Shown: positions 29,427-42,494, numbered from the stretch's first letter. The stretch is 64,000 nt of DNA from Motilimonas eburnea (GCF_021295345.1 NZ_JAIMJB010000006.1:25892-89891); one strand, 5' to 3'. Notes: generated from the letters alone by a model not told the origin. Made by a program: numbers and translations.

Positions 29427-29454
29427 AAAAAAATGCCCAACGCTGGGGTTGGGC
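29427..29454 (-). terminator. rho-independent terminator (minus strand), copy 1 of a duplicated ~40-bp element
   Basis: Minus strand: GCCCAAC-CCCAGC-GTTGGGC followed by ATTTTTTT. Confidence 0.6.
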
Positions 29455-29512: not shown

Positions 29513-29540
29513 AAAAAAATGCCCAACGCTGAGGTTGGGC
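29513..29540 (-). terminator. rho-independent terminator (minus strand), copy 2 of the duplicated element, ~100 bp downstream of the small ORF at 29644
   Basis: Minus strand: GCCCAAC-CTCAGC-GTTGGGC followed by ATTTTTTT. Copy 2 sits 86 bp from copy 1 and includes the flanking TAAGGG. Confidence 0.6.
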
Positions 29541-30256: not shown

Positions 30257-30859
30257 ATGAGCATGTTTTATAGTCTTGCATTTGCCTTTCCAACTGCCCT
30301 TTTTACTGCTTTTGTACTGCTCATTTCTCTTTATTGGGCCGTGACTGTGATTGGTATGACGGAAATTGAGATGCTCGATGTTGATGACTCCTTGCTCGAT
30401 TTTTCCGGTTTAATGGCCAAGCTCAAACTCGATGGCGTGCCCGTCACCATTGCTTTGTCATTACTGTTTTATTTCTCTTGGGTTGTCAGCCTCATTATTC
30501 AAAATCAACTTAACCAAATGTTAGCGCCAGGGATCACCTACTATGGTTTTGGCCTGCTCGCGATGCTCGTCAGTTTATTACTCGGCGATCTCATCGCTAG
30601 CCAATGTGTTAAACCATTGCGCAAGATCTTTCGTGACCAAGAGGTACTCAGTAAACAAGACCTTGTCGGTAAAACGGCCATCGTCAGAACAACCAGCGTG
30701 ACCGATAGTTTTGGTGAAGCCAACTTTAATGATGGCGGCGCCGGAATCATTATAAAAATAAGAGCACATCAACCTAACCAACTTAATCGTGGCGACTCAG
30801 TGTTACTGGTGGAATATTTGCAAGAGCAAGATTCCTATATTGTCACCGCCCATTTGTAA
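30257..30859 (+). CDS. yqiJ: NfeD/YqiJ-like inner-membrane protein (membrane domain plus C-terminal OB-fold), partner of the flotillin
   Basis: 200 aa: multiple N-terminal TM helices then a soluble ~70-aa beta-rich C-terminus. Only 22 bp upstream of the SPFH gene, which is the YqiJ-YqiK arrangement. Confidence 0.65.
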   Translation: MSMFYSLAFAFPTALFTAFVLLISLYWAVTVIGMTEIEMLDVDDSLLDFSGLMAKLKLDGVPVTIALSLLFYFSWVVSLIIQNQLNQMLAPGITYYGFGLLAMLVSLLLGDLIASQCVKPLRKIFRDQEVLSKQDLVGKTAIVRTTSVTDSFGEANFNDGGAGIIIKIRAHQPNQLNRGDSVLLVEYLQEQDSYIVTAHL

Positions 30860-30880: not shown

Positions 30881-33121
30881 ATGTTAGATATCACTACCAT
30901 ATTGATCATTGTCGGCATCGGCTTTGGCATCTTGTTGGGCTTTGCTTTATTGGTTAAAGCCTTTTATATCAAGGTACCTCAGGGCACGGCCTTGATCGTT
31001 AACACCACTCAAACCACACCTAAGGTTCGCTTCACGGGTGCCCTTGTTATCCCCGTGATCCACAAGATGGAAAAAATGCGTATATCCTTGATCACGCTAG
31101 AGATAGATCGCCGAGGTAAAGATGGCCTTATCTGTTTAGATAACATGCGCGCCGACATTACCGTTGCCTTCTATTTACGTGTAAACGAAACAGCTGAAGA
31201 CGTACTTAAAGTCGCCAAATCCATCGGTGCCGATCGCGCTTCCGATAAAGATGCAGTGAACGAGTTATTTAATGCCAAATTCTCTGAGGCATTAAAAACC
31301 GTGGGTAAAAAAATGGAGTTCTTACAACTGTTTGAAGAGCGAGCATTTTTCCGCGATGAGATTGTTAAAACCATAGGTAATGACTTAAACGGTTATGCCC
31401 TTGAAGACGTGGCGATCGATTACTTAGAGCAAACGCCAAAATCCGCTCTAGATCCTAACAACATCATGGACTCGGAAGGTATTCGTAAAATCACCGAAGT
31501 CACCTCCAAAGAGAACGTTAAAACCAACGAATACATTCGTGATGAAGAGCGTGCCATCAAAAAGAAAAACGTTGAAACCATTGAGCATTTACTCGTGCTT
31601 GATCGCCAAGAGAAAGAAGCACGAGCGAAACAAGAGCGTGAAGTGGCCAACATTAAAGCGCGCGAGAAGTCTGAACAGCTTAAGGTGGAAGAAGAAGAGC
31701 GCCTCAAGGCCGAATCAGCACGTATTCAAACCGAGCAAAATATTGCCATCCAAGAAGAAAACAAACTTCGTGAAATTGAAGTGTCGCAGCAAAACCGCGA
31801 ACGTGCGATTGGCGTTGAGCAAGAGCGGGTACAACGTGCCAAAGATCTTGAAGTGGTATCACGCGAACGTGAAGTCGCGCTGCAAACCATAGAGAAAGAG
31901 CGTGCCCTCGAAGTTGAGAAGAAAGAAATCGCCAACGTGGTACGTGAGCGTATCGCCGTTGAGAAAACCGTGGCTGAAGAAGAAGAGCGCATTAAAGAAG
32001 TACGTGAAGTCTCTGAAGCCGATCGTAACCGCCAAGTGGTGATCCTACAGGCCGAAGCACAAGCCCAAGAAGAGCTAGTTAAACAGGTTAAACAAGCCGA
32101 AGCCGATGAAATTAAAGCGCGCCACGAAGCGCAAAAAATCATCACTATGTCCCAAGCCGATCTCGAAGCTGCAGCGAAAAATGCCGACGCCATGAAGAAA
32201 ATGGCCGAAGGTATCGAAGCTGAAAACTCAGCACCGGGTCTGGCCGAAGCCCGCGTGAAAGAAGCCCTAGCCGATGCCCTAGAGAAAGAAGGCCTAGCCA
32301 AAGCTAAGGTAGAGCAAGAAACCTTAGTGGCTCGCGCCCAAGGTGATGAGCAAGTGGGTCTGGCTAAAGCGCGCGTACTCGAAGCGAACGCCAGCGCCAA
32401 AGAAAAAGATGGCCTTGCCGAAGCCAAAGTATTGGCTGAAAAACTCACAGCACAAGCTCAAGGTGATAAAGATATCGGTCTTACTGAGGCCATGGTATTG
32501 GCTGAGAAATTGAGCGCTCAAGCCAAAGGCGATAAAGACATTGGCTTGGCTAAAGCCTTGGCTTCTCGCGAGCTAGGTACTGCCGAAGCGGACGTGTTAG
32601 CGCTGAAACTGTCTGCCCAAGCTAAGGGTGATAAAGAGCAAGGCATGGCAGAAGCGGAAGTACTCAGTGCCAAATTCCACGCCGAAGCCCAAGGTCTGGT
32701 TGAGAAATTCAGCGCCATGGCAACCATGTCAAAAGAAGCTCGCGAGCACGAAGAGTTCCGTATGCAGCTTGAGAAAGACTTTGAGCAAGCCATGCAAGCC
32801 ATTAGCGTTAATAAGGACGTTGCTGTCCAGCAAGCGCAAGTGCTGTCTTCTGCCCTTGAAAAAGCCAACATCGACATCGTGGGAGGCCAAGGCGATTACT
32901 TCAACTCGTTAAGTAAAGCCCTGACCGTCGGTAAGTCCATCAATGGTCTGGTTGGTAAAACACCTTCGGTTGCGGCATTGCTGAATAAATTCATTGGCGG
33001 TGAAGAGTCAAAGCTATCGCCAGAGCAAACCGCAAAACAAAACTCATCTGATGTATTAGGTGGCTTATTAAACGAAAAAGCCAATGCAAACCAAGCAACT
33101 TCCGAGTCTAAAGACGCTTAA
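30881..33121 (+). CDS. yqiK: flotillin-like SPFH/band-7 protein (YqiK/FloT family), unusually long (746 aa) with an extended E/A/K-rich coiled-coil and imperfect ~21-aa repeats
   Basis: N-terminal TM, then SPFH core (...KVPQGTALIVNTTQ...ISLITLEIDRRGKDGLICLDNMRADITVAFYLRV...). Long EA-repeat region AQGD(K/E)(D/Q)(I/V)GL(A/T)(E/K)A(K/M)VLA(E)KLSAQ repeated about 5 times. Confidence 0.85.
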   Translation: MLDITTILIIVGIGFGILLGFALLVKAFYIKVPQGTALIVNTTQTTPKVRFTGALVIPVIHKMEKMRISLITLEIDRRGKDGLICLDNMRADITVAFYLRVNETAEDVLKVAKSIGADRASDKDAVNELFNAKFSEALKTVGKKMEFLQLFEERAFFRDEIVKTIGNDLNGYALEDVAIDYLEQTPKSALDPNNIMDSEGIRKITEVTSKENVKTNEYIRDEERAIKKKNVETIEHLLVLDRQEKEARAKQEREVANIKAREKSEQLKVEEEERLKAESARIQTEQNIAIQEENKLREIEVSQQNRERAIGVEQERVQRAKDLEVVSREREVALQTIEKERALEVEKKEIANVVRERIAVEKTVAEEEERIKEVREVSEADRNRQVVILQAEAQAQEELVKQVKQAEADEIKARHEAQKIITMSQADLEAAAKNADAMKKMAEGIEAENSAPGLAEARVKEALADALEKEGLAKAKVEQETLVARAQGDEQVGLAKARVLEANASAKEKDGLAEAKVLAEKLTAQAQGDKDIGLTEAMVLAEKLSAQAKGDKDIGLAKALASRELGTAEADVLALKLSAQAKGDKEQGMAEAEVLSAKFHAEAQGLVEKFSAMATMSKEAREHEEFRMQLEKDFEQAMQAISVNKDVAVQQAQVLSSALEKANIDIVGGQGDYFNSLSKALTVGKSINGLVGKTPSVAALLNKFIGGEESKLSPEQTAKQNSSDVLGGLLNEKANANQATSESKDA

Positions 33122-33209: not shown

Positions 33210-36200
33210 ATGATGTCGGATCACACTGTTGCAGAGAATGAACAAGATCTTGCCGCCGTTGCCGAAGGCGGCGCCTACCAAGTTATTCGCGCTCGCCTTA
33301 ACCAGCAAGGCAACGAGCTAGAGCAAAAAACCCAAAAACTCAATCAAGCCAGACTGAAAGAGTTTGGCCGCGAAGACATGCACGTACTTGGCCGAGTTCG
33401 CGTGCGCACTGAAAACAACTGCCAAGCCCGCGACATCGTCTGCGCGGGAGATTATTTACTGTTTGGCTACAATGTTTTTATCGGTCTCAAACAAGAAATT
33501 AAAATATCCGACGTCTTTGGTCTCTATAAGCTCAACCACACCGACGCCGGCTATGAAATGCACCATGAGCCGATCGCTGGAAGCTTTTTAGACAACCCCA
33601 GATTTGACCAAGACTTCACCGAGCTTTACACCTATTACAAAGAAGCTCGCCTACTTAGACTCACCATTCGCGATGGTAAGCTGCTGGCCAGTTTTCAGAT
33701 TGGCCTAAAAATGTCGGATGTCAGGGTGTTTCGCTGGAGCATCAGTAGCGATGGTAAAACCCTAGAATACATAGACAACCGCGGCGAGCGCGACCTCGTG
33801 CCGCCGGCCCAATACGATTTTGAATGGCAAGAATGTAGCCGTGAAAACGAAGTGGCGGGACGTTTCCCCCACATGAATATTTTAGACACCTTGTTTGTAG
33901 AAACCACCCAAGGTGATCTGACCGTCAAGATAGAAAACAATACCGACTCAGGCCTAGGCATCTACGCCGAAGACGTTGAAGACGACAACCAATCCCTTGA
34001 TGATGCGCGCTTTTTATATGCCGAAGTGGGCTCGCTGATCCTATTAAAGATACTGCCTTATCGCGAAGAAAAGTGGCGCTACTTGGTCTTTAACCGCAAC
34101 ACTGAAACCGTGGTGCGCATTGACCATATTGGCCACGCCTGTCGCCAGTTGCCTGAAAATCACGGCATCATCTTCCCCGGCGGTTATTACCTGCAAAATG
34201 GCGATTACAAAACCTTTGATGATGATATTACCGGCCTTGAATATCGCCAAACCATCAAGAGCCCTAATGGCGAAGACGTGTTGTATGTGTTTTATGAGCC
34301 AATCGAAGGCAAAGTCGGCCTTTATGCCTATAACCTGATCAACAAAAGCTTAGAAAACCCCTTGTTTGGTCACGGCTACGCCGCCCTAAATGATGGCCGC
34401 GTGGTGCTGTTTTATGCCGAAGGTGAGCCGACTCGCGTACACCCCATGCAAATTTGGCAAACGCCATTTTGCTCCGACGAGTACGCCAGCGCCCAGCCAA
34501 CTAAACAGAGCTTTTACGGCAAAATCGGCAACGCCGAACTCGTACGCGGCATCTCGGAATTATTTAGCACAGTTAAAGCCATCAACAACCAAACCGTTTC
34601 CACTAAGCTCTACAGCGAGTTGATTAAAAACGTCAACCGCATGTTTGATAGCTATCATTGGATGGCGGCACAACAAGTCGATGGTATCGAAAGCCTGCTG
34701 CGTCAAATTGCGGCCACGGCAGAGCTCGTGCTTGATGAGTTTGAAAAAGTTGAAACCATTCGCCAGCAAGCGCGCCAAGCCTTGCAACAAGCGCAGCAGC
34801 AACAAAGCAAGATATTATCTGAGATCACCCCTGATTCGTGGCAGACACCGGAAAAGTTTGTTGGCGGCCTTGATGCCATACGCAAACAAAAAGGCCACTT
34901 GCTGACCATCAAAACCATGCGTTACATGGAAGCCGAGCCATTAGCGCAAATGGGGCAAAAGCTGGAGCAAGCCGAGGCTAGCCTGAGCCAAAAAACCGTG
35001 GAGTTTTTGGCCAAAGAATCTTCATTAGCGCCCTATAACGATAAGCTAGCCAGCTTAAATACCGAGCTTGAAAAAGTGGTGTCGGTGGCCGAACTAGAGC
35101 CCGTTGCCGAGCAGCTTGAGCAAATGGCGGCCGGACTGGATTTACTGTCCGAGCTGATGGCAACCTTAAAGGTCAATGATGCCACGGTACGCACCCGCAT
35201 CATCGATACCATTTCGGAGATTTATGGCCGCTTAAACCAAACCAAGGCCAATGCGAAACATAAAAAGCAAAGCCTTGGCAGCGCCGAATCCCTAGCGCAG
35301 TTTTCTGCGCAATTTAAGCTGTTCAGCCAAAGTATTACCAATGCCTTGGGTCTGGCCAATACACCCGAAAAAGCCGATGAACAACTATCGCGCCTGTTGG
35401 TGCAGCTTGAAGAGTTAGAGAGTCAATTTAGCGAGCAGGAAGAATTTCTCACGGATATTCTGACCAAACGTGAAGAAGTCATAGAAAGCTTTGAAAGCCA
35501 TCGCCAACGTATGGTCGAAGCGCGCCAACGCAAGGCTAGCACGTTAAAAGACGCGGCCGAGCGGATCTTAGCCAGCATTGCCCGCCGGGTGCAAAAGTTC
35601 ACAGAACTAGAGCAGCTCAATACCTTTTTCGCTTCCGATGCCCTCGCCCTTAAAATTTACGATCTAGTGGCGCAGCTGCGCGAGATTGACGATTCGGTCA
35701 AAGCCGATGACATCGAAGCCAAATTTAAAAACAGCAAAGACCAAGCCATTCGCTCGCTGCGTGATAAAAGCGAAATCTTTGAAGACGGCGGCAACGTTAT
35801 CAAACTGGGGCCACGCCATAAGTTTACCGTGAACACCCAAGAGCTGGATCTCACCTTACTGCCTAAAGGTGATGAGCTAGTGTTCCACTTAACCGGTACC
35901 GACTACTTTGATGTTGCCAGTGACGCCGAGCTAAATCGTCTGCAAGATTACTGGACCCAAGAAATTGAATCAGAAACCAAGCAGGTTTATCGCGCCGAGT
36001 ACTTGGTTAAACAAATACTGGATAGCGCCGAACGAAATGAAGCAGGTTTAAGCACAGAGCAGCTAAGATTAGCACAAACGGATCCAGCCCAATTAAACCA
36101 ATTGGTCCGCGATTTTGCCGCGCCGCGCTACAAAGAAGGCTACGAACGCGGTATTCATGATCACGATGCCAGCTTGATTTTAAGTCAGCTGTTACCGGCT

Positions 36201-38231
36201 CTAAGTCAAGCCGATGTGCTCAGGTTTCCGCCATTAAGCCGTGGATTTAGCGCCATTTTTTGGGCTAACTGCCAACAAGATACGCCGATGCAAACTTGGC
36301 CAGAGCGGGCCAAATCGGCATTGCGTATGGAAGCCATCTTTAACTCAAGTGACGCGAAGCATTTACTTGAGCAAGAAATTAAACAAGCGCAGCAAGCCTT
36401 TGCCAAAGCCAATGAACTGCCCTTGGATAACACCGCCATTGATCTTAGCGCCCGCTATTTAGTGCAAGAGCTAGCCAAGGAGCCAGTGGTATTTGCCACC
36501 AGTAAATACGCCGACCATCTGGCGCAAGAGCTCAGACGCGCCATGGACACAGAGTCTTGGAATTCCTACCAGCATAGTTTAGAAAAACTCAAAGGTAAGA
36601 TAGGTCAGCGCTGGGCCCTAACTCAAGCTTGGCTGCAAGCCTTAGTCAGTAATAAAGCCATGGCAAAATGGCAAGCCTACATTCCAGAAGCCGTGGCCTT
36701 GATTAACGGTGAAGGCCGCCTTAGCCGCCGCGTCCATGAAGTCGAGCTAGAGTTTCAGGTAGAGGGCTTAATGGGCCAGCATAGCCGGATAAAAGATCGT
36801 AAGCTTGATCTTTCTTTAGATGACTTTTTGCAGCGCCTTGAACATCACCAACAAGCCGTATTACCCGGCTACAACGAGTTCTTAAGTGTTCGTAATCAGG
36901 TCACTCAAAAGCAAAAAACACAGCTGCGCTTAAGCGAGTTTAAGCCTAGGCCGCTGTCGTCTTTTGTACGAAATAAGTTAATCAATGATGCGTATTTGCC
37001 CATCATAGGTGATAACTTGGCCAAACAAATGGGTACAGTGGGCGAAAGTAAGCGAACCGATTTGATGGGCTTGCTCATGCTTATCTCCCCACCGGGCTAT
37101 GGTAAAACCACCTTGATGGAATACATCGCCAGCCGGTTGGGCTTGATTTTTATGAAAATCAACTGTCCCTCTATCGGTCATGTGGTGGACTCGCTCGATC
37201 CCGCGCAGGCGCCCAACGCCACCGCCAAAGCCGAGTTAATTAAACTCAACCTAGGCTTAGAAATGGGTAACAACGTGATGCTGTATCTCGATGATATTCA
37301 GCACACTAACCCTGAATTTTTACAAAAATTCATTTCTTTGTGTGATGGCACGAGGCGCATCGAAGGTATCTGGCAAGGCCAGCCAAAAACCTATGATCTG
37401 CGCGGTAAAAAGTTCTGCGTGATCATGGCGGGTAACCCTTACACCGAATCCGGTGAAGCATTTCAAATCCCCGACATGCTGGCCAACCGCGCCGACATAT
37501 ACAACCTAGGTGATATTTTAGGTGGCATGGATGAGGCCTTTGCCTTGAGTTACCTTGAAAATGGCATGACCTCCAACCCCGTACTGGCGCCACTGGCGAC
37601 GCGTTCACAGCAAGATTTCTATAAGCTGGTTGAGCTGGCCAAAGGCAATCAAGTGGATAGCAGCGAATTAGAGCACGGCTACAGCGGCGCCGAGCTGAAT
37701 GAAATCACTGGCGTGTTGGCCAAGTTACTGCAAATTCAACAAGTGGTACTGGCCGTCAACCAAAGCTATATTGCCTCGGCGGCCCAAGCCGATAAGTATC
37801 GCACCGAGCCGCCCTTTAAGCTGCAAGGCAGTTATCGCAACATGAACAAGATGGCCGAAAAAGTCTCTTCGGTCATGAATGATGACGAGCTGATGCAACT
37901 CATTGAAGATCATTACCTAGGTGAAGCGCAAATGTTGGCCGCGAGCGCCGAGGAAAACTTACTCAAATTGGCCGAGCTGCGCGGTAACATGACACCAGAG
38001 CAAGCTCAGCGCTGGCAACAAATCAAAGATGATTATGTTAAGCATCAGACATTGGGTGGCGACAGTGATGTTACCCTCAAGGCCGTGTCGCAATTGTTAG
38101 ATATGAATGCCAACCTGAACAGTATTAACGATACCTTAAGCCAAACCCGTTATCGCTTTAAACGTTCCACCACAGAAACGGGTAAAACTCAGGTCAGCAT
38201 CAGCAAAAAGCCAAAGCATGTGAAGGAATAA
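33210..38231 (+). CDS. giant (1673-aa) multidomain cytoplasmic protein: N-terminal ~430-aa beta-rich domain, ~800 aa of Q/E/L/A-rich coiled-coil/helical repeats, C-terminal MoxR/AAA_5-like P-loop ATPase module plus a ~300-aa helical tail
   Basis: Continuous ORF. Walker A LISPPGYGKTTLMEY at aa ~1290-1300 (nt ~37086-37112). Walker B-like VMLYLDDIQH (DD rather than DE) at aa ~1356-1363. Sensor-1-like CVIMAGNP. No TM or signal peptide. Family not recognised. Confidence 0.8.
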   Translation: MMSDHTVAENEQDLAAVAEGGAYQVIRARLNQQGNELEQKTQKLNQARLKEFGREDMHVLGRVRVRTENNCQARDIVCAGDYLLFGYNVFIGLKQEIKISDVFGLYKLNHTDAGYEMHHEPIAGSFLDNPRFDQDFTELYTYYKEARLLRLTIRDGKLLASFQIGLKMSDVRVFRWSISSDGKTLEYIDNRGERDLVPPAQYDFEWQECSRENEVAGRFPHMNILDTLFVETTQGDLTVKIENNTDSGLGIYAEDVEDDNQSLDDARFLYAEVGSLILLKILPYREEKWRYLVFNRNTETVVRIDHIGHACRQLPENHGIIFPGGYYLQNGDYKTFDDDITGLEYRQTIKSPNGEDVLYVFYEPIEGKVGLYAYNLINKSLENPLFGHGYAALNDGRVVLFYAEGEPTRVHPMQIWQTPFCSDEYASAQPTKQSFYGKIGNAELVRGISELFSTVKAINNQTVSTKLYSELIKNVNRMFDSYHWMAAQQVDGIESLLRQIAATAELVLDEFEKVETIRQQARQALQQAQQQQSKILSEITPDSWQTPEKFVGGLDAIRKQKGHLLTIKTMRYMEAEPLAQMGQKLEQAEASLSQKTVEFLAKESSLAPYNDKLASLNTELEKVVSVAELEPVAEQLEQMAAGLDLLSELMATLKVNDATVRTRIIDTISEIYGRLNQTKANAKHKKQSLGSAESLAQFSAQFKLFSQSITNALGLANTPEKADEQLSRLLVQLEELESQFSEQEEFLTDILTKREEVIESFESHRQRMVEARQRKASTLKDAAERILASIARRVQKFTELEQLNTFFASDALALKIYDLVAQLREIDDSVKADDIEAKFKNSKDQAIRSLRDKSEIFEDGGNVIKLGPRHKFTVNTQELDLTLLPKGDELVFHLTGTDYFDVASDAELNRLQDYWTQEIESETKQVYRAEYLVKQILDSAERNEAGLSTEQLRLAQTDPAQLNQLVRDFAAPRYKEGYERGIHDHDASLILSQLLPALSQADVLRFPPLSRGFSAIFWANCQQDTPMQTWPERAKSALRMEAIFNSSDAKHLLEQEIKQAQQAFAKANELPLDNTAIDLSARYLVQELAKEPVVFATSKYADHLAQELRRAMDTESWNSYQHSLEKLKGKIGQRWALTQAWLQALVSNKAMAKWQAYIPEAVALINGEGRLSRRVHEVELEFQVEGLMGQHSRIKDRKLDLSLDDFLQRLEHHQQAVLPGYNEFLSVRNQVTQKQKTQLRLSEFKPRPLSSFVRNKLINDAYLPIIGDNLAKQMGTVGESKRTDLMGLLMLISPPGYGKTTLMEYIASRLGLIFMKINCPSIGHVVDSLDPAQAPNATAKAELIKLNLGLEMGNNVMLYLDDIQHTNPEFLQKFISLCDGTRRIEGIWQGQPKTYDLRGKKFCVIMAGNPYTESGEAFQIPDMLANRADIYNLGDILGGMDEAFALSYLENGMTSNPVLAPLATRSQQDFYKLVELAKGNQVDSSELEHGYSGAELNEITGVLAKLLQIQQVVLAVNQSYIASAAQADKYRTEPPFKLQGSYRNMNKMAEKVSSVMNDDELMQLIEDHYLGEAQMLAASAEENLLKLAELRGNMTPEQAQRWQQIKDDYVKHQTLGGDSDVTLKAVSQLLDMNANLNSINDTLSQTRYRFKRSTTETGKTQVSISKKPKHVKE

Positions 38232-38234
38232 ATC

Positions 38235-38921
38235 ATGGACCAACAACATATAGAGCAAGTATTGCTGGCTAGTCTTGAAGACAACAAGCTCGATCGGGAT
38301 GAAAAACATGCCCTTGCCGAGTTAACTCAAAGCTTGCAAACCCAACCCGATAACATCAGCTTTATTCGCAATAAAGCCTTTGCTTTGCTATTGGCCAGCC
38401 ATGACTTTAATGAGGAGCAGTTTCGTGCCATTAAATGGCTGGAAAACGTGGTCAAAACCTTAGATAAAAACAGCCAGCAACCTAGCATCGTCGCCGATGC
38501 GTGCTTTAGCCCGGGCACAGATTGTTTAAATCGGATCGAGAGTTTGTGCCAACAAGCTAGGCGCAGTATCGATATCTGTGTGTTTACGATTTCGTGTAAC
38601 GAAATCACCGATGCGATATTGCAAGCCCACCAGCGCGGCATCACGGTGCGCATTATTTCTGATAATGATAAGCGTAATGACAAGGGCTCTGACGTCTATC
38701 GCTTAAGCGACGCAGGCATTCCTGTGGTGGTGGATAAGACCGACCATCATATGCACCACAAGTTTGCCCTGTTTGACCAAAAAGTGTTGCTCAACGGCAG
38801 CTTTAACTGGACCCGTAGCGCGTCTAAATACAATCAAGAGAACATCGCGACCACCGACAATCCTAAATTGGTTGCCGCCTTTAGCCGAGAGTTTGACCGC
38901 CTTTGGCATAAATTAGGTTAG
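38235..38921 (+). CDS. Nuc-like phospholipase-D-family nuclease (single HKD motif) with a ~90-aa N-terminal helical extension
   Basis: HxK(x4)D(x6)GSxN motif HHKFALFDQKVLLNGSFNWTRSA at nt ~38752-38820. Start is 4 bp after the giant ORF stop, with an AGGA RBS overlapping that stop (translational coupling). Confidence 0.8.
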   Translation: MDQQHIEQVLLASLEDNKLDRDEKHALAELTQSLQTQPDNISFIRNKAFALLLASHDFNEEQFRAIKWLENVVKTLDKNSQQPSIVADACFSPGTDCLNRIESLCQQARRSIDICVFTISCNEITDAILQAHQRGITVRIISDNDKRNDKGSDVYRLSDAGIPVVVDKTDHHMHHKFALFDQKVLLNGSFNWTRSASKYNQENIATTDNPKLVAAFSREFDRLWHKLG

Positions 38922-39111
38922 TTCCCGTCTAGGCCAGTTGCTCTGCACTGGCCTAATCAAACCTGCCCCACAAACATAAACAATAATTAAGTATGCCCTG
39001 TCGCGATAAGTTGCTATGTTAACCCGCTTACTCAAGCGTACATTCAGTTGGACTTCACTGAGTTCAAACTTTAATCGTTAGCCACTTTACTTTTAGCGCA
39101 CGCATTGCAGA

Positions 39112-41955
39112 ATGAGCAAGGTGCTTGCTTGGCAAAAAGCTGTTTCAGGGAAATTTATGCTAGACCGGAGTTGTCGAAATCTCATCCGCTATTATCGAGC
39201 TTGTTACCAAGCCGACAATCGAGATTTAACTCTATTTAATGTTTATCACCGTGATTGTGAGTACACTCGCTTTATGCAAGGGCGAGAAACCCTGATCAGC
39301 AATGATATTCCTCGCCTGCCCTTAGCAAAAAGCTATGGCGAAACCCTGTATCAAGCGCAAAACACCTACCAAAGAGAAAAGACCTTACTTTATTGCAGCT
39401 TTTTTTTGCTCGGTAAGTTACCTTCGAGTTACCCCGGAAAACGCAAGGTGTGCGCACCGCTACTCTATTATCATGCTCAAGTCAGCATAGATAACAATGA
39501 GTACTATCTCAGCATAGATAAAAGTAAGCCCATCGTTAACTGGCCCTTATTGCGCTGGGCGTTAGCGGAAGGCAAACAGCCAAATGAGCCGGAGTTTATC
39601 ACTCAGGGCATCACCGAACTTGATGTGGCTAAACTGAGCCACTGGCTGAGTTCAATGAGCGATAAGATAAATTGCCTTGAATTATATCATTACCCCAATT
39701 TGACCAGTGAAGATGACATTGAGGCTAAACAGCATCAGGAAGGCGAATTTAACCTCGTCTCGGCTTCTGCGATCACCTTAGTCAAATACTCACTGGCTTC
39801 GCGGGGGATCTTACACGATCTCAAGGCGATGGCGGTCTCTTCCTACCTGCCACAATCGGTCAATATGCTACTCACGGGAGCACAACAAGCCACATCATAC
39901 CCTCGCCAATCATCAACCAGCGCACCCTCAACAGGGCGAGAATACCTCAGTGGTTTAACCGCAGCCGATCCCGATAATATTCCCGCATTACTCAGCCATG
40001 CCCAACGCCAAGCCTTGATCAATGCAGCACGTTTTCCTGTTAGCCAAATTGTTGGGCCACCGGGCACGGGCAAATCCTATACCATTGCCTGTTTAGCCCT
40101 AGAGCGCTATCTACAAGGTGAGTCGGTATTGGTGGTGGGACAAAACAATGAAAGCGTAAACATTGTTGGCGACAAAATAGAGGCCATGCTGGGCCAACAA
40201 GATTTTGTCGTACGAGTGGGTGATGCCAGTTATCACAAAAAATTAAAGCGCTATTTAAAAGACCTGCTCAGTGGCTACCTGACCCAACAAGAAAACCGAG
40301 CTAAGCAACATGGCAGTGAAAGCCTACTCAAGCAAAAACAAAAGATGCAGCGCCTCGAGAAGCAATTTGCCAAACGCTGTCAAAAAGCCATTCGTTACGG
40401 CATGCACACCTGGAAAGCGCAGCAACATGACTCGCTATGGAACCGCTTTAATGCATGGCGTGCAAAACGAGCCACCCTCAAACAAGATATTTTGTTTGAC
40501 GTATTTGCCGAGATAACCAAACAACAGCGTATTCGACACCTGGCCCTAGGCCATTATATTAGCCAAAGCCGTCGGCGACGCTTGCACCATGTGCTCAATC
40601 ACCACCGCGCGCAATTGAATCGATTTCGCGAAGCAATCAACGCCACCAATTCAAGTGAGCAAGCCAGCCGATTTGACACCATTGATTACCCCATTCTACT
40701 CAAGGCGATGCCGGTGTGGCTGGGCACCTTAGGTGACTTGCATCGAAGCTTGCCATTAAAAGCGGAATTGTTTGATTTGGTCATCATCGACGAAGCCAGC
40801 CAATGTGATATTGCCAGTACCTTGCCGGCCGTGTTTAGAGCTAAGCATGTCGTCATCGTAGGCGATGATAAGCAACTTAGGTTTATTTCGTTTTTATCTA
40901 AGGACAAGCAAGGGAAATTGCAATCGCGCTATGATTTATCAAACCAAACGGGTGAGTTCGATTATCGTAATGTCAGTGTGTTAGACCTAGCTAACCGTCA
41001 TATCAAGCAGCAACAGGCGATTGTTGTATTAGATGAACACTTTCGCAGCAAAAGTGCATTGATTGATTTTAGTAACCGTAAGTTTTACCACCAGCAGCTC
41101 AAAGTGATGCGCCATAAACCGGGCAATAACACGGACTATCCTTTATCGATAGTGCCTTGCCAAGGACAATATAAAAATGGCAAAAACCAACAAGAAGCGC
41201 TAGATGTCATGGCGTTTTTGCAGACCAAGCTACATCAACAGAGCGCCATGGGTTTACACTCCAGTATCGGCATTCTATCGCCTTTTCGTGAACAGACCAT
41301 GCTGTTGCAAAAGCTATTACCTCGGTATGCCACGCCCGACCAAATCAATCATCATCGCATAAAAATTGAAACCCCTTATGGTTTCCAAGGCGAAGAGCGC
41401 GACATCATACTACTGAGTATGTGTGTGGATGAACAAAGCAGCGGCCATCAATTTCGATATATCAATCGCCCTGATGTGTTTAACGTTGCGGTGACGCGCG
41501 CACGCGACGAACAATATGTTTTTTTATCAAGTCGGCCGCACCGTTTACCTTCACAATCGCTGTTATTTGAATACATCCACAGTATCGAACGGAATCATCA
41601 ATACGCGTTAGATGAAAACAACGATTTTGATGCCTTTCAGGCCGAAGTATCCCGATTGTTGACCTTAAATGGCATTAACACATGGAAAAACTACCCCATA
41701 GCAGGGGCAGAGCTTGATTTAATGTGCGAGTATGGAGATAAAACCTTAGCCATCGACTTGATTGGCTACCCAGGCGAATCTCAGGACTACTACCACCTCA
41801 GCCGCTACCAAATTTTTCAACGTGCTGGCCTAACCTTATATCCCCTGACCTATACTCGCTGGGTTAACCAAAAACACCGAGTATTAAAACAAATAATCCA
41901 ACTATTGGGGGCCAGCGAAACGGGCTTGACCAGTCAGGAAAACAGCATTTACTGA
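39112..41955 (+). CDS. Upf1/DNA2-like superfamily-1 helicase (DUF4011-like N-region, AAA_11/AAA_12 core) with a C-terminal DUF559/PD-(D/E)xK-like nuclease-fold domain
   Basis: Motif I GPPGTGKS (nt ~40054). Motif II VIIDEASQ (nt ~40780). Motif III VVIVGDDKQL. Motif V ILSPFREQ. Motif VI VAVTRAR. The C-terminal ~130 aa (...ELDLMCEYGDKTLAIDLIGYPGE...RYQIFQRAGLTLYPLTYTRW) resembles DUF559. Confidence 0.85.
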   Translation: MSKVLAWQKAVSGKFMLDRSCRNLIRYYRACYQADNRDLTLFNVYHRDCEYTRFMQGRETLISNDIPRLPLAKSYGETLYQAQNTYQREKTLLYCSFFLLGKLPSSYPGKRKVCAPLLYYHAQVSIDNNEYYLSIDKSKPIVNWPLLRWALAEGKQPNEPEFITQGITELDVAKLSHWLSSMSDKINCLELYHYPNLTSEDDIEAKQHQEGEFNLVSASAITLVKYSLASRGILHDLKAMAVSSYLPQSVNMLLTGAQQATSYPRQSSTSAPSTGREYLSGLTAADPDNIPALLSHAQRQALINAARFPVSQIVGPPGTGKSYTIACLALERYLQGESVLVVGQNNESVNIVGDKIEAMLGQQDFVVRVGDASYHKKLKRYLKDLLSGYLTQQENRAKQHGSESLLKQKQKMQRLEKQFAKRCQKAIRYGMHTWKAQQHDSLWNRFNAWRAKRATLKQDILFDVFAEITKQQRIRHLALGHYISQSRRRRLHHVLNHHRAQLNRFREAINATNSSEQASRFDTIDYPILLKAMPVWLGTLGDLHRSLPLKAELFDLVIIDEASQCDIASTLPAVFRAKHVVIVGDDKQLRFISFLSKDKQGKLQSRYDLSNQTGEFDYRNVSVLDLANRHIKQQQAIVVLDEHFRSKSALIDFSNRKFYHQQLKVMRHKPGNNTDYPLSIVPCQGQYKNGKNQQEALDVMAFLQTKLHQQSAMGLHSSIGILSPFREQTMLLQKLLPRYATPDQINHHRIKIETPYGFQGEERDIILLSMCVDEQSSGHQFRYINRPDVFNVAVTRARDEQYVFLSSRPHRLPSQSLLFEYIHSIERNHQYALDENNDFDAFQAEVSRLLTLNGINTWKNYPIAGAELDLMCEYGDKTLAIDLIGYPGESQDYYHLSRYQIFQRAGLTLYPLTYTRWVNQKHRVLKQIIQLLGASETGLTSQENSIY

Positions 41956-42494
41956 TCGCCTTGTAATAAATCGGGTGATAAAGACACCGAGCCTGACTCC
42001 GTGCTCACTAGCACTTCCCCATCTTGAACGGACACTTGCACATCCATGGTTTTTTGAAACAACTGGGCTAGCGCTTGCGTTTGCTCATAGGCAAGGTTGT
42101 ATACCGTCAGCTTAGGCAATTTAGCGAGTTGCTTTTGGTTTTGTTGCCACCAAATATCTGCACTGCCGCCGCCATAACTGTAAAGCACGACTTGTTTAGA
42201 TCTGGCGCAAGCTTTTTTCAAACGCTTCTCTTCTGGTGTGCCCAGTTCCACCCATAATTCAATGTCATCCGTTAAAGATTTAGCCCATAACTCAGGCTCA
42301 TCATCGGCACATAGGCCTTTAGTAAACGTGAGGTTATCCCTTGCCTGCAGGGCAAAGGCTAACAATCTAACCATCAAACGCTGGGCATTTTCCGAAGGAT
42401 GCTGAGCCAAGGTTAAATTGTAATCTTGGTATAAATGCGTGTCCATGTTGGCAAGTTGTAACCTTGCCTTGATAATCGTTGCGCCTATTGCCAT
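41949..42494 (-). CDS. yaeQ: YaeQ-family protein
   Basis: 181 aa, colinear with E. coli YaeQ (...QHPSE..R.M.R.LAF...PELW.KSL.D.I.LW.E.G.P...Q.K..V.Y.Y....W...). Convergent with the helicase gene, overlapping it by 7 bp. Confidence 0.85.
   Translation of the reverse strand: MAIGATIIKARLQLANMDTHLYQDYNLTLAQHPSENAQRLMVRLLAFALQARDNLTFTKGLCADDEPELWAKSLTDDIELWVELGTPEEKRLKKACARSKQVVLYSYGGGSADIWWQQNQKQLAKLPKLTVYNLAYEQTQALAQLFQKTMDVQVSVQDGEVLVSTESGSVSLSPDLLQGDQ

Follow-up and report, generated by a model that had tools for sequence, protein, structure and literature searches.

Two neighbouring genes of Motilimonas eburnea, lying in a 64,000-nucleotide (nt) stretch of DNA (the window; positions are counted from its first letter), raise the question of what a phospholipase D (PLD)-type phosphodiesterase does beside a Upf1-like helicase. 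The preliminary description of the locus took them for a stand-alone pair resembling type I Mokosh. Both open reading frames (ORFs) are present as it described them, at 38235-38921 for the PLD protein (+ strand, 228 amino acids, aa) and at 39112-41955 for the helicase (+ strand, 947 aa). The reading preferred here, to which we give a probability of about 0.5, is that the two work as a nuclease-helicase unit, a facultative sub-module within a membrane-scaffold operon, and that this unit would act on single-stranded nucleic acid at the inner membrane.

The PLD protein and its operon

The PLD gene starts 3 nt past the stop codon of the gene for a 1673-aa DUF3686 protein, and a Shine-Dalgarno-like sequence, GAAGGA, lies ahead of it inside the 3' end of that gene. 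Because of the 3-nt gap and the internal Shine-Dalgarno-like sequence, and because the same gene order recurs in relatives without the helicase, the PLD gene appears to close a four-gene operon and to be coupled to it in translation. The products of this operon, in order, are a YqiJ-like protein, an SPFH/flotillin-like protein, the DUF3686 AAA+ protein and the PLD. This speaks against the idea of a stand-alone pair, since the coupling ties the PLD to the genes upstream, with which it also travels phylogenetically.

The first operon gene (30257..30859, +) encodes a putative YqiJ/NfeD-like small membrane protein of 200 aa. It is strongly hydrophobic (maximum KD19 2.28), sits at the YqiJ-like position and is conserved with the operon. 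The name is taken from the published operon description (PMC11237479); no Pfam, NCBIfam or PDB match backs it. The second gene (30881..33121, +) encodes a flotillin-like protein of 746 aa with an N-terminal hydrophobic segment, an SPFH/Band-7 domain and a long charged, predicted coiled-coil repeat region. Band_7 was found at residues 31-179 (E = 4.5e-10, 40 bits, cut-off 23.6) when the first 240 aa were scanned alone. A full-length Pfam scan gave no match, and public annotation of the homologues is likewise without one; the score is probably suppressed by the long Glu/Lys/Ala-rich repeat region. The third gene (33210..38231, +) encodes the giant ATPase, in which Pfam finds DUF3686 (beta-propeller; E = 4e-196), DUF7902 (E = 8e-29) and AAA/AAA_5 at residues 1289-1412. 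A literature search on DUF3686 found no paper.

The gene content and order, YqiJ-like, SPFH/flotillin, DUF3686 AAA+ and PLD, are those of the PspA-associated operon of Ravi et al. (mSystems 2024; PMC11237479). That operon joins band-7/flotillin, YqiJ/YuaF and AAA+ genes with PspA, and in some Proteobacteria it includes a PLD (HKD) hydrolase. The SPFH/flotillin, the beta-propeller/coiled-coil AAA+ protein (DUF3686) and the HKD PLD were all found in M. eburnea. The CesT/Tir(DUF2170)-PspA dyad stands upstream in relatives of the locus, whereas in the window tblastn found no PspA, DUF2170 or rhomboid gene, and a gene for a helicase fused to a restriction-endonuclease (REase) fold is added. Abbreviated forms without PspA are also described by Ravi et al. 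(PMC11237479), and the M. eburnea operon, which fits that class, appears to be one of them. The 'bac' cluster of P. aeruginosa, PA3732-PA3729, is part of the same PspA-associated operon (PMC2587700), and in the literature on PA3728-PA3732 the phenotypes reported, in biofilm and virulence, all concern the PspA-side genes. The word 'helicase' occurs 0 times in Ravi et al. (PMC11237479), and no paper was found in our search that joins PspA, flotillin, phospholipase D and helicase in one operon.

A PLD-centred survey of 84 loci was made, and three isolate genomes were inspected in addition. Full-length PLD homologues are common (226-235 aa, about 50% identity, N-terminal extension included). In 49 of the 84 loci a DUF3686 gene of the same strand precedes the PLD, and flotillin-like (35), YqiJ-like (33), PspA (31) and DUF2170 (22) genes are frequent upstream as well; a rhomboid gene directly precedes the PLD in 29. 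A near-full-length helicase is near the PLD in 19 of the 84 loci, and 3 more hold remnants only. Operons without the helicase include DUF2170-PspA-218 aa-665 aa-DUF3686-PLD in Marilutibacter, PspA-...-DUF3686-rhomboid-Zn-ribbon-PLD in Alkalimarinus and YqiJ-like-flotillin-DUF3686-PLD on chromosome 2 of Vibrio campbellii. When the PLDs were clustered at 75% identity, 21 clusters had a fully evaluable locus, with DUF3686 in 11 and the helicase in 3 of them. The helicase is thus an optional add-on to the flotillin operon, previously undescribed in the papers searched.

The PLD protein has exactly one HKD motif, as the preliminary description had it. The motif, HHKFALFDQKVLLNGSFN, occupies residues 174-191 (38754..38807, +), and follows the pattern HxK(x)4D(x)6GSxN with H174, K176 and D181, residues that are invariant in 74 homologues. 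It lies on a Nuc-fold domain of about 140 aa (Pfam PLDc_2, E = 7.5e-31). The N-terminal extension of some 85-90 aa that had been noted ahead of this domain is also conserved in the 74 sequences, with L10, D16, E23, F49 and W68 invariant. An AlphaFold2 model (pLDDT 89) places helices at residues 3-14, 21-33, 38-53 and 60-79, a predicted family-specific four-helix bundle (38235..38489, +) with no consistent Pfam match. The sequence holds no transmembrane or signal segment, and neither sequence nor model has a membrane anchor or an amphipathic N-terminus.

Among solved structures, the PLD family profile matches mammalian PLD6/MitoPLD/Zucchini best (1e-38, 136 bits), followed by fly Zucchini (about 1e-25), Nuc (3.5e-19) and NucT (8e-14). 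The catalytic domain (window 38490-38918) is 39% identical to PLD6 (PDB 9lkx, 4ggj) over 133 ungapped residues. Nuc of the IncN plasmid and NucT of H. pylori are 25-27% identical to the PLD and differ from it in being secreted or periplasmic and in lacking the N-terminal helical bundle. Nuclease-type models (NucT, Nuc, Zucchini) score 1e-17, against only about 2e-3 for cardiolipin-synthase models, so the protein is of Nuc/Zucchini type and not of the cardiolipin-synthase type. In the converse comparison the PLD6 catalytic domain scores 33 bits on the PADLOC defence model DpdK, 32 on DrmC, 23 on MkoC and 18 on MkoB. The PLD is thus predicted to be cytoplasmic and to belong, as a single-HKD enzyme, to the Nuc/Zucchini clade, nearest to PLD6/Zucchini, with an N-terminal bundle of its own. 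Because its family profile reaches 136 bits on PLD6, against 18-23 bits for PLD6 on the Mokosh models, the PLD of the flotillin operon appears to be related to PLD6 far more closely than any other bacterial family tested.

The helicase and the comparison with Mokosh

The helicase ORF is 100% identical to the 932-aa NCBI protein of M. eburnea. Its true start is probably the ATG at 39157, giving 932 aa, because the NCBI model, the starts of the homologues and a preceding AGGGA Shine-Dalgarno-like sequence all point there. The SF1B/Upf1 motifs reported earlier are all present: in the 947-aa numbering GPPGTGKS is at 315-322 (Walker A, 40054-40077), DEASQ at 560-564 (motif II, 40789-40803), GDDKQL at 584-589 (motif III, 40861-40878) and VAVTRAR at 792-798 (motif VI, 41485-41505). 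They are invariant across the family alignment and mark out the SF1B core (40054..41505, +), which matches AAA_11 and AAA_12 in Pfam. The nearest solved structures are Sen1 (7e-32), Upf1 (2e-24) and IGHMBP2 (6e-23), with DNA2 weaker. The motifs and the Upf1/Sen1-type RecA domains place the protein among the Upf1-like SF1B helicases, and it does not group with the housekeeping DNA2/RecD-like repair enzymes.

The N-terminal 275 residues (39157..39981, +) are conserved across phyla and are probably DUF4011-like; 5 of 8 homologues have a sub-threshold DUF4011 match (E 2e-4 to 0.04), each time over this stretch. The family as a whole appears to be old and widespread, about 900 aa long and mostly solo, with a DUF4011-like N-domain, an Upf1-type SF1B core and a Vsr/DUF559-fold C-domain. 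In a subset of about 1090 aa (L002, L006, L033, L034, L047, L051; proteins P0026, P0084 and others) the Vsr-fold domain is followed by a further C-terminal stretch of about 180 aa with predicted helical structure.

The C-terminal domain (41635..41904, +) had been described as an extra, Vsr/DUF559-like second nuclease. The fold stands, at the level of a structure model: the model has an alpha-beta-beta-beta-alpha-beta core that superimposes on Vsr and DUF559. The model was used to show the fold, as a sequence search of the PDB did not suffice; the profile of the domain found nothing significant there (AF1548 at E = 0.86). The match to Pfam MTES_1575 is below threshold (E = 9.6e-5, 22.8 bits, cut-off 38.2), and only 6 of 20 homologues have it. 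The canonical DUF559 motif is ExDGxxH. The helicase C-domain reads DxIGxPG in its place, with the second acidic residue and the histidine replaced. Across 61 sequences D869, D882, G885, R904 and W917 are invariant, and nuclease activity of the domain is uncertain because the motif is incomplete, with only D869, D882 and R904 kept. Nor is the domain an extra, as fusions of SF1 helicases to Vsr-type REases were already described in 2013 (PMC3710099).

Type I Mokosh consists of MkoA, a COG1112 helicase with a serine/threonine kinase (STK) domain, and the PLD protein MkoB, and type II is a fusion, MkoC (10.1101/2022.05.11.491447). If the M. eburnea genes were a stand-alone anti-phage pair of the type I kind, the helicase would sense phage RNA or replication intermediates, the PLD, along with the Vsr-fold domain, would degrade nucleic acid, and the operon would be irrelevant. 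The domain composition is indeed the same (10.1101/2022.05.11.491447), a Upf1-like, COG1112-type SF1 helicase with an HKD PLD. The comparison with the MkoA and MkoB profile hidden Markov models that the preliminary description had proposed also gives matches in PADLOC: the helicase matches MkoC (9e-47) and MkoA (2e-33), and the PLD matches MkoC (2.6e-9) and MkoB (1e-6). These matches cover the helicase core and the HKD domain, and the rest of the profiles is unmatched. On MkoA they span positions 620-1068 of 1112, a generic helicase core; positions 1-620 find no counterpart, a DUF4011-like N-domain stands there instead, and Pfam detects no kinase domain in the helicase. On MkoB the PLD, with 228 aa against a 610-position profile, covers positions 227-440 (about 35%) at 26 bits, and the DrmC, MkoC and DpdK models outscore MkoB on it. 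The partial matches of the two proteins tile MkoC positions 669-1112, in the order helicase then PLD.

The pair thus shares the domain composition of Mokosh but appears not to be a member; it is not filed as Mokosh because two defining features, the MkoA N-terminal/kinase region with a full-length profile match and a match of the PLD to the MkoB model, were looked for and are not there. The helicase carries instead an N-domain of its own and, at the C-terminus, a Vsr-fold domain. The PLD-first gene order, which had been put forward as a departure from Mokosh, is not diagnostic, since both orders occur in relatives of the pair; nuclease-NTPase systems generally occur in both (bioRxiv 10.1101/2025.07.10.664194).

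The setting of the two genes, known from sequence alone, differs from that of Mokosh as well, for they sit in a membrane-scaffold operon and not in a defence island. A Pfam scan of the window ORFs found no defence genes beside the pair. The flanking genes, of housekeeping and signalling kinds, encode two-component systems, a sulfhydrylase, a lactonase-like protein, an M50 peptidase, a GGDEF-EAL protein and a Cus-type efflux pump. The guanine-plus-cytosine (GC) content is 0.48 in the module, 0.462 in the helicase and 0.464 in the whole window, and a second Motilimonas species shares the synteny of the locus. The distribution of both families is vertical: a neighbour-joining tree of the helicases groups them roughly by phylum, and 2.9 million viral contigs hold neither a helicase-family member with the N-domain nor a member of the PLD family. 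In plasmid records the only full-length helicase copy is on an 859-kb Persicobacter replicon, and plasmid Nuc genes match the PLD family over the catalytic domain only. On the other side, one lineage (L095) has a helicase-PLD pair with no DUF3686 within 7 kb, and the variable presence of the helicase, with decayed remnants in close relatives, is typical of accessory genes. Set against the coupling of the PLD to the flotillin/DUF3686 operon and its co-inheritance with it, these points leave a Mokosh-like defence pair quite unlikely.

A mobile-element origin of the pair was considered and rejected: GC is uniform, and the families are found on no viral contigs and no ordinary plasmids.

Linkage of the helicase to the operon

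A helicase-centred survey by profile scan, taking one genome per species, gave 80 loci with full-length relatives. These span Gammaproteobacteria, Planctomycetota, Bacteroidota, Verrucomicrobiota, Myxococcota and others. The helicase is linked to the operon in 10 of the 80, with DUF3686 within 10 kb in 9 and with the PLD only in L015; in 8 of the 80 the PLD gene is immediately upstream. Linked copies are scattered over six or more separate branches of the helicase tree, from two phyla, and come in four gene orders; lineage counts are based on identity clusters and the neighbour-joining tree. The orders are DUF3686-(rhomboid)-PLD-helicase in Motilimonas and the Pseudomonas group, DUF3686-(Zn-ribbon)-helicase-PLD, DUF3686-helicase-DUF2339 membrane protein-PLD, and the helicase-PLD order of L095. 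A Schleiferiaceae metagenome-assembled genome (MAG) of the Bacteroidota (L057:1-12700) has an operon of Xre-type helix-turn-helix, PLD and helicase genes divergent from CesT/Tir-PspA-YqiJ-flotillin-DUF3686. The spacing between PLD and helicase is 0-40 nt in most linked loci, where the genes abut or overlap.

The chance that a random gene lies no more than 10 kb from a given operon is roughly 0.5% per lineage in a genome of 4-5 Mb. Because linkage is found on at least six branches and in four arrangements against this expectation, it appears not to be due to chance, and the adjacency of PLD and helicase in several lineages says the same of the pairing itself. The distribution indicates a helicase that is linked to the operon, usually adjoining the PLD, in at least six lineages and is lost again within lineages. 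In the large Pseudomonas-like PLD cluster the helicase is present in 13 loci, missing from 16 and fragmentary in 3. Short remnants persist 3' of the PLD in such operons (L125:10708-11094, L132:11194-11424, L133:11095-11280), which suggests recent decay of the helicase in some Pseudomonas-like strains.

The linkage bears on another possibility, that the helicase is an autonomous helicase-nuclease of a reduced Hhe type, active in repair or defence, and that its nearness to the PLD operon is inherited synteny with no functional coupling. The series of DUF4011-like, Upf1-like SF1 and Vsr-family REase domains is that of Hhe-type proteins (DUF4011-SF1 helicase-Vsr/MTES_1575 REase-DUF3320; PMC3710099). 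The helicase is solo in about 70 of the 80 genomes, with no conserved neighbour among these solo copies, and in the window a spacer with a repetitive extragenic palindromic (REP)-like element parts it from the PLD. It differs from Hhe in its length (932 aa against about 1800-1900), in having no DUF3320/winged helix-turn-helix tail and in its partly degenerate REase motif. Its matches to the Hhe models fall short of full length: the NCBIfam model gives 90 bits (cut-off 2000) and the PADLOC model 67 bits, over the helicase core only. With linkage on so many branches, and with the helicase abutting or overlapping the PLD gene in most linked loci, an uncoupled enzyme of this kind is unlikely. Compared at the level of taxon names, the occurrences of the helicase and of DUF3686 overlap (Pseudoalteromonas, Colwellia, Oleispira, Thermoanaerobaculia, Myxococcota), and in Litoribrevibacter euphylliae the two genes are on different contigs.

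The spacer in the window is 190 nt when counted to 39112, as first given, and 235 nt to the probable start at 39157. The hairpin reported in it is present, with its end at 38955 instead of 38953. It consists of TAGGCCAGT, 8 nt and ACTGGCCTA (38930..38955, +), that is, a 9-base-pair stem with an 8-nt loop, and it has a folding energy of -20.1 kcal/mol (z = -3.1) and no T-run. In Motilimonas sp. KMU-193 the spacer (L001:9660-9862, homologous to window 38922-38990) holds a 33-nt tandem array of 4-5 hairpin units (TTTAGGCTCGCAGCCTAAA plus TATAAACAATCC), whereas the M. eburnea window has a single, different hairpin. The exact KMU-193 unit has no further copy elsewhere in the window. The hairpin thus appears to be a fast-evolving REP-like element and not a conserved terminator. 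A role as intrinsic terminator or regulator was rejected: there is no T-run, the terminator scan did not return the hairpin, and similar hairpins in the sister species form a tandem array that varies.

Substrate, mechanism and surroundings

To our knowledge, every characterised small single-HKD enzyme of the clade (Nuc, NucT, Zucchini/PLD6 and the N-domain of BfiI) cleaves nucleic acid. Family precedent suggests that the PLD is likewise a homodimer and a nucleic-acid phosphodiesterase. PLD6 works with a Upf1-like helicase, MOV10L1 (10.1101/2022.12.12.520048). It is because of the precedent of the clade and of this partnership that a nuclease-helicase unit is proposed for M. eburnea. In such a unit the helicase would translocate 5'-to-3' on single-stranded RNA or DNA, and its REase-fold domain may nick the strand. 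The helicase would then present the strand to the PLD homodimer for cleavage via a phosphohistidine intermediate, a hand-over modelled on MOV10L1/Armitage supplying PLD6/Zucchini. The flotillin/AAA+ scaffold would hold the activity at the inner membrane, the place where foreign nucleic acid or damage to the envelope would be met, and the biological role would be stress-linked nucleic-acid clearance or defence.

Several observations weigh against such a sub-module. The REase-fold domain appears to lack part of the canonical catalytic motif. Co-transcription is not assured, because the 190-235 nt spacer that parts the two genes holds a stable hairpin. The solo occurrence of the helicase in about 70 of 80 genomes, together with its presence in 3 of 21 PLD clusters, implies that neither partner needs the other nearby. 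With Sen1 and Upf1 as its best PDB matches, the helicase shows no specific affinity to MOV10L1. Finally, the other proteins linked to the operon (SPFH, PspA, rhomboid, DUF2339) are all membrane-related.

This last point belongs to a different account of the PLD, as a cardiolipin/phosphatidylglycerol hydrolase or transphosphatidylase that remodels flotillin/PspA microdomains in envelope stress, with the helicase separate and sharing no substrate with it. MitoPLD was first described as a cardiolipin hydrolase, the lipid-versus-RNA substrate of PLD6/Zucchini was long disputed, and the closest solved homologue of the PLD is deposited under the name 'mitochondrial cardiolipin hydrolase'. A lipid substrate is a serious alternative because of this precedent and because the rest of the operon consists of membrane proteins or membrane-remodelling factors, PspA being ESCRT-III-like. 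The helicase, moreover, is missing from most PLD-bearing operons. The accepted activity of Zucchini, by contrast, is cleavage of single-stranded RNA. The PLD is far closer to NucT, Nuc and Zucchini than to cardiolipin synthases, has neither membrane anchor nor amphipathic N-terminus, and repeatedly adjoins the nucleic-acid enzymes helicase-REase and YaeQ. Even with the recruitment of flotillin to cardiolipin-rich domains that Ravi et al. propose (PMC11237479), a lipid-acting PLD is rather improbable.

If the PLD and the helicase do form a nucleic-acid sub-module, a further step suggests itself. The sub-module could correspond in bacteria to the Zucchini/PLD6-Armitage/MOV10L1 pair of piRNA biogenesis, and may even be its evolutionary source; it would be tethered to a flotillin/ESCRT-III-like (PspA) membrane scaffold and would process single-stranded nucleic acid there. 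In each case an SF1B helicase accompanies a single-HKD enzyme at a membrane surface or tied to one, and the catalytic domains are those with 39% identity, PLD6 being the best PDB match. The bacterial PLD differs in that its N-domain is a soluble four-helix bundle where PLD6 has a transmembrane anchor, and its membrane association is suggested by the operon partners only. We regard this counterpart relationship as doubtful. Were it true, the closest bacterial relatives of PLD6 would be found in a membrane-stress operon rather than in Mokosh. The proposed Mokosh origin of PLD6 and MOV10L1 should be weighed against the much closer operon PLD family.

The sub-module reading would tie a widespread, uncharacterised scaffold operon, so far read purely as envelope-stress machinery, to nucleic-acid enzymes, a link not described in the papers searched. 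The locus would gain much in interest should the Zucchini-like PLD and the helicase prove to work jointly at the membrane. The operon PLD would also be a tractable bacterial model for PLD6/Zucchini, standing beside membrane remodellers and, facultatively, a Upf1-like helicase. For annotation there is a risk that domain-level profile matches could wrongly label such loci as type I Mokosh.

Downstream of the helicase the window encodes YaeQ, a PD-(D/E)XK-fold protein (41949..42494, -; Pfam YaeQ, E = 7.6e-73), in convergent orientation, the two genes sharing 7 nt at their 3' ends. A YaeQ gene lies downstream of the PLD or the helicase in 26 of the 84 PLD loci, in at least three lineages, and may be a further, loosely linked component of the module.

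In variant operons (L097:6366-10004, L122:6315-10004, L145:3341-7090) the gene for a membrane protein with DUF2339 (about 1220 aa, E = 1.7e-30) stands between those for the helicase and the PLD and runs 4 nt into the start of the PLD gene. These operons continue with a 286-aa protein of unknown kind, a CitMHS transporter and an AdoMet decarboxylase. In a Kangiellaceae MAG (L016:9983-22671) the helicase lies upstream, and the order is helicase, GGDEF protein, two ORFs, PspA, rhomboid, YqiJ-like, flotillin and DUF3686. In the M. eburnea window, the gap of about 1 kb upstream of the operon holds two near-identical terminator-like hairpins, at 29435-29454 and 29521-29540 (-), 86 nt apart, with the sequence GCCCAACC[C/T]CAGCGTTGGGC followed by a T-run.

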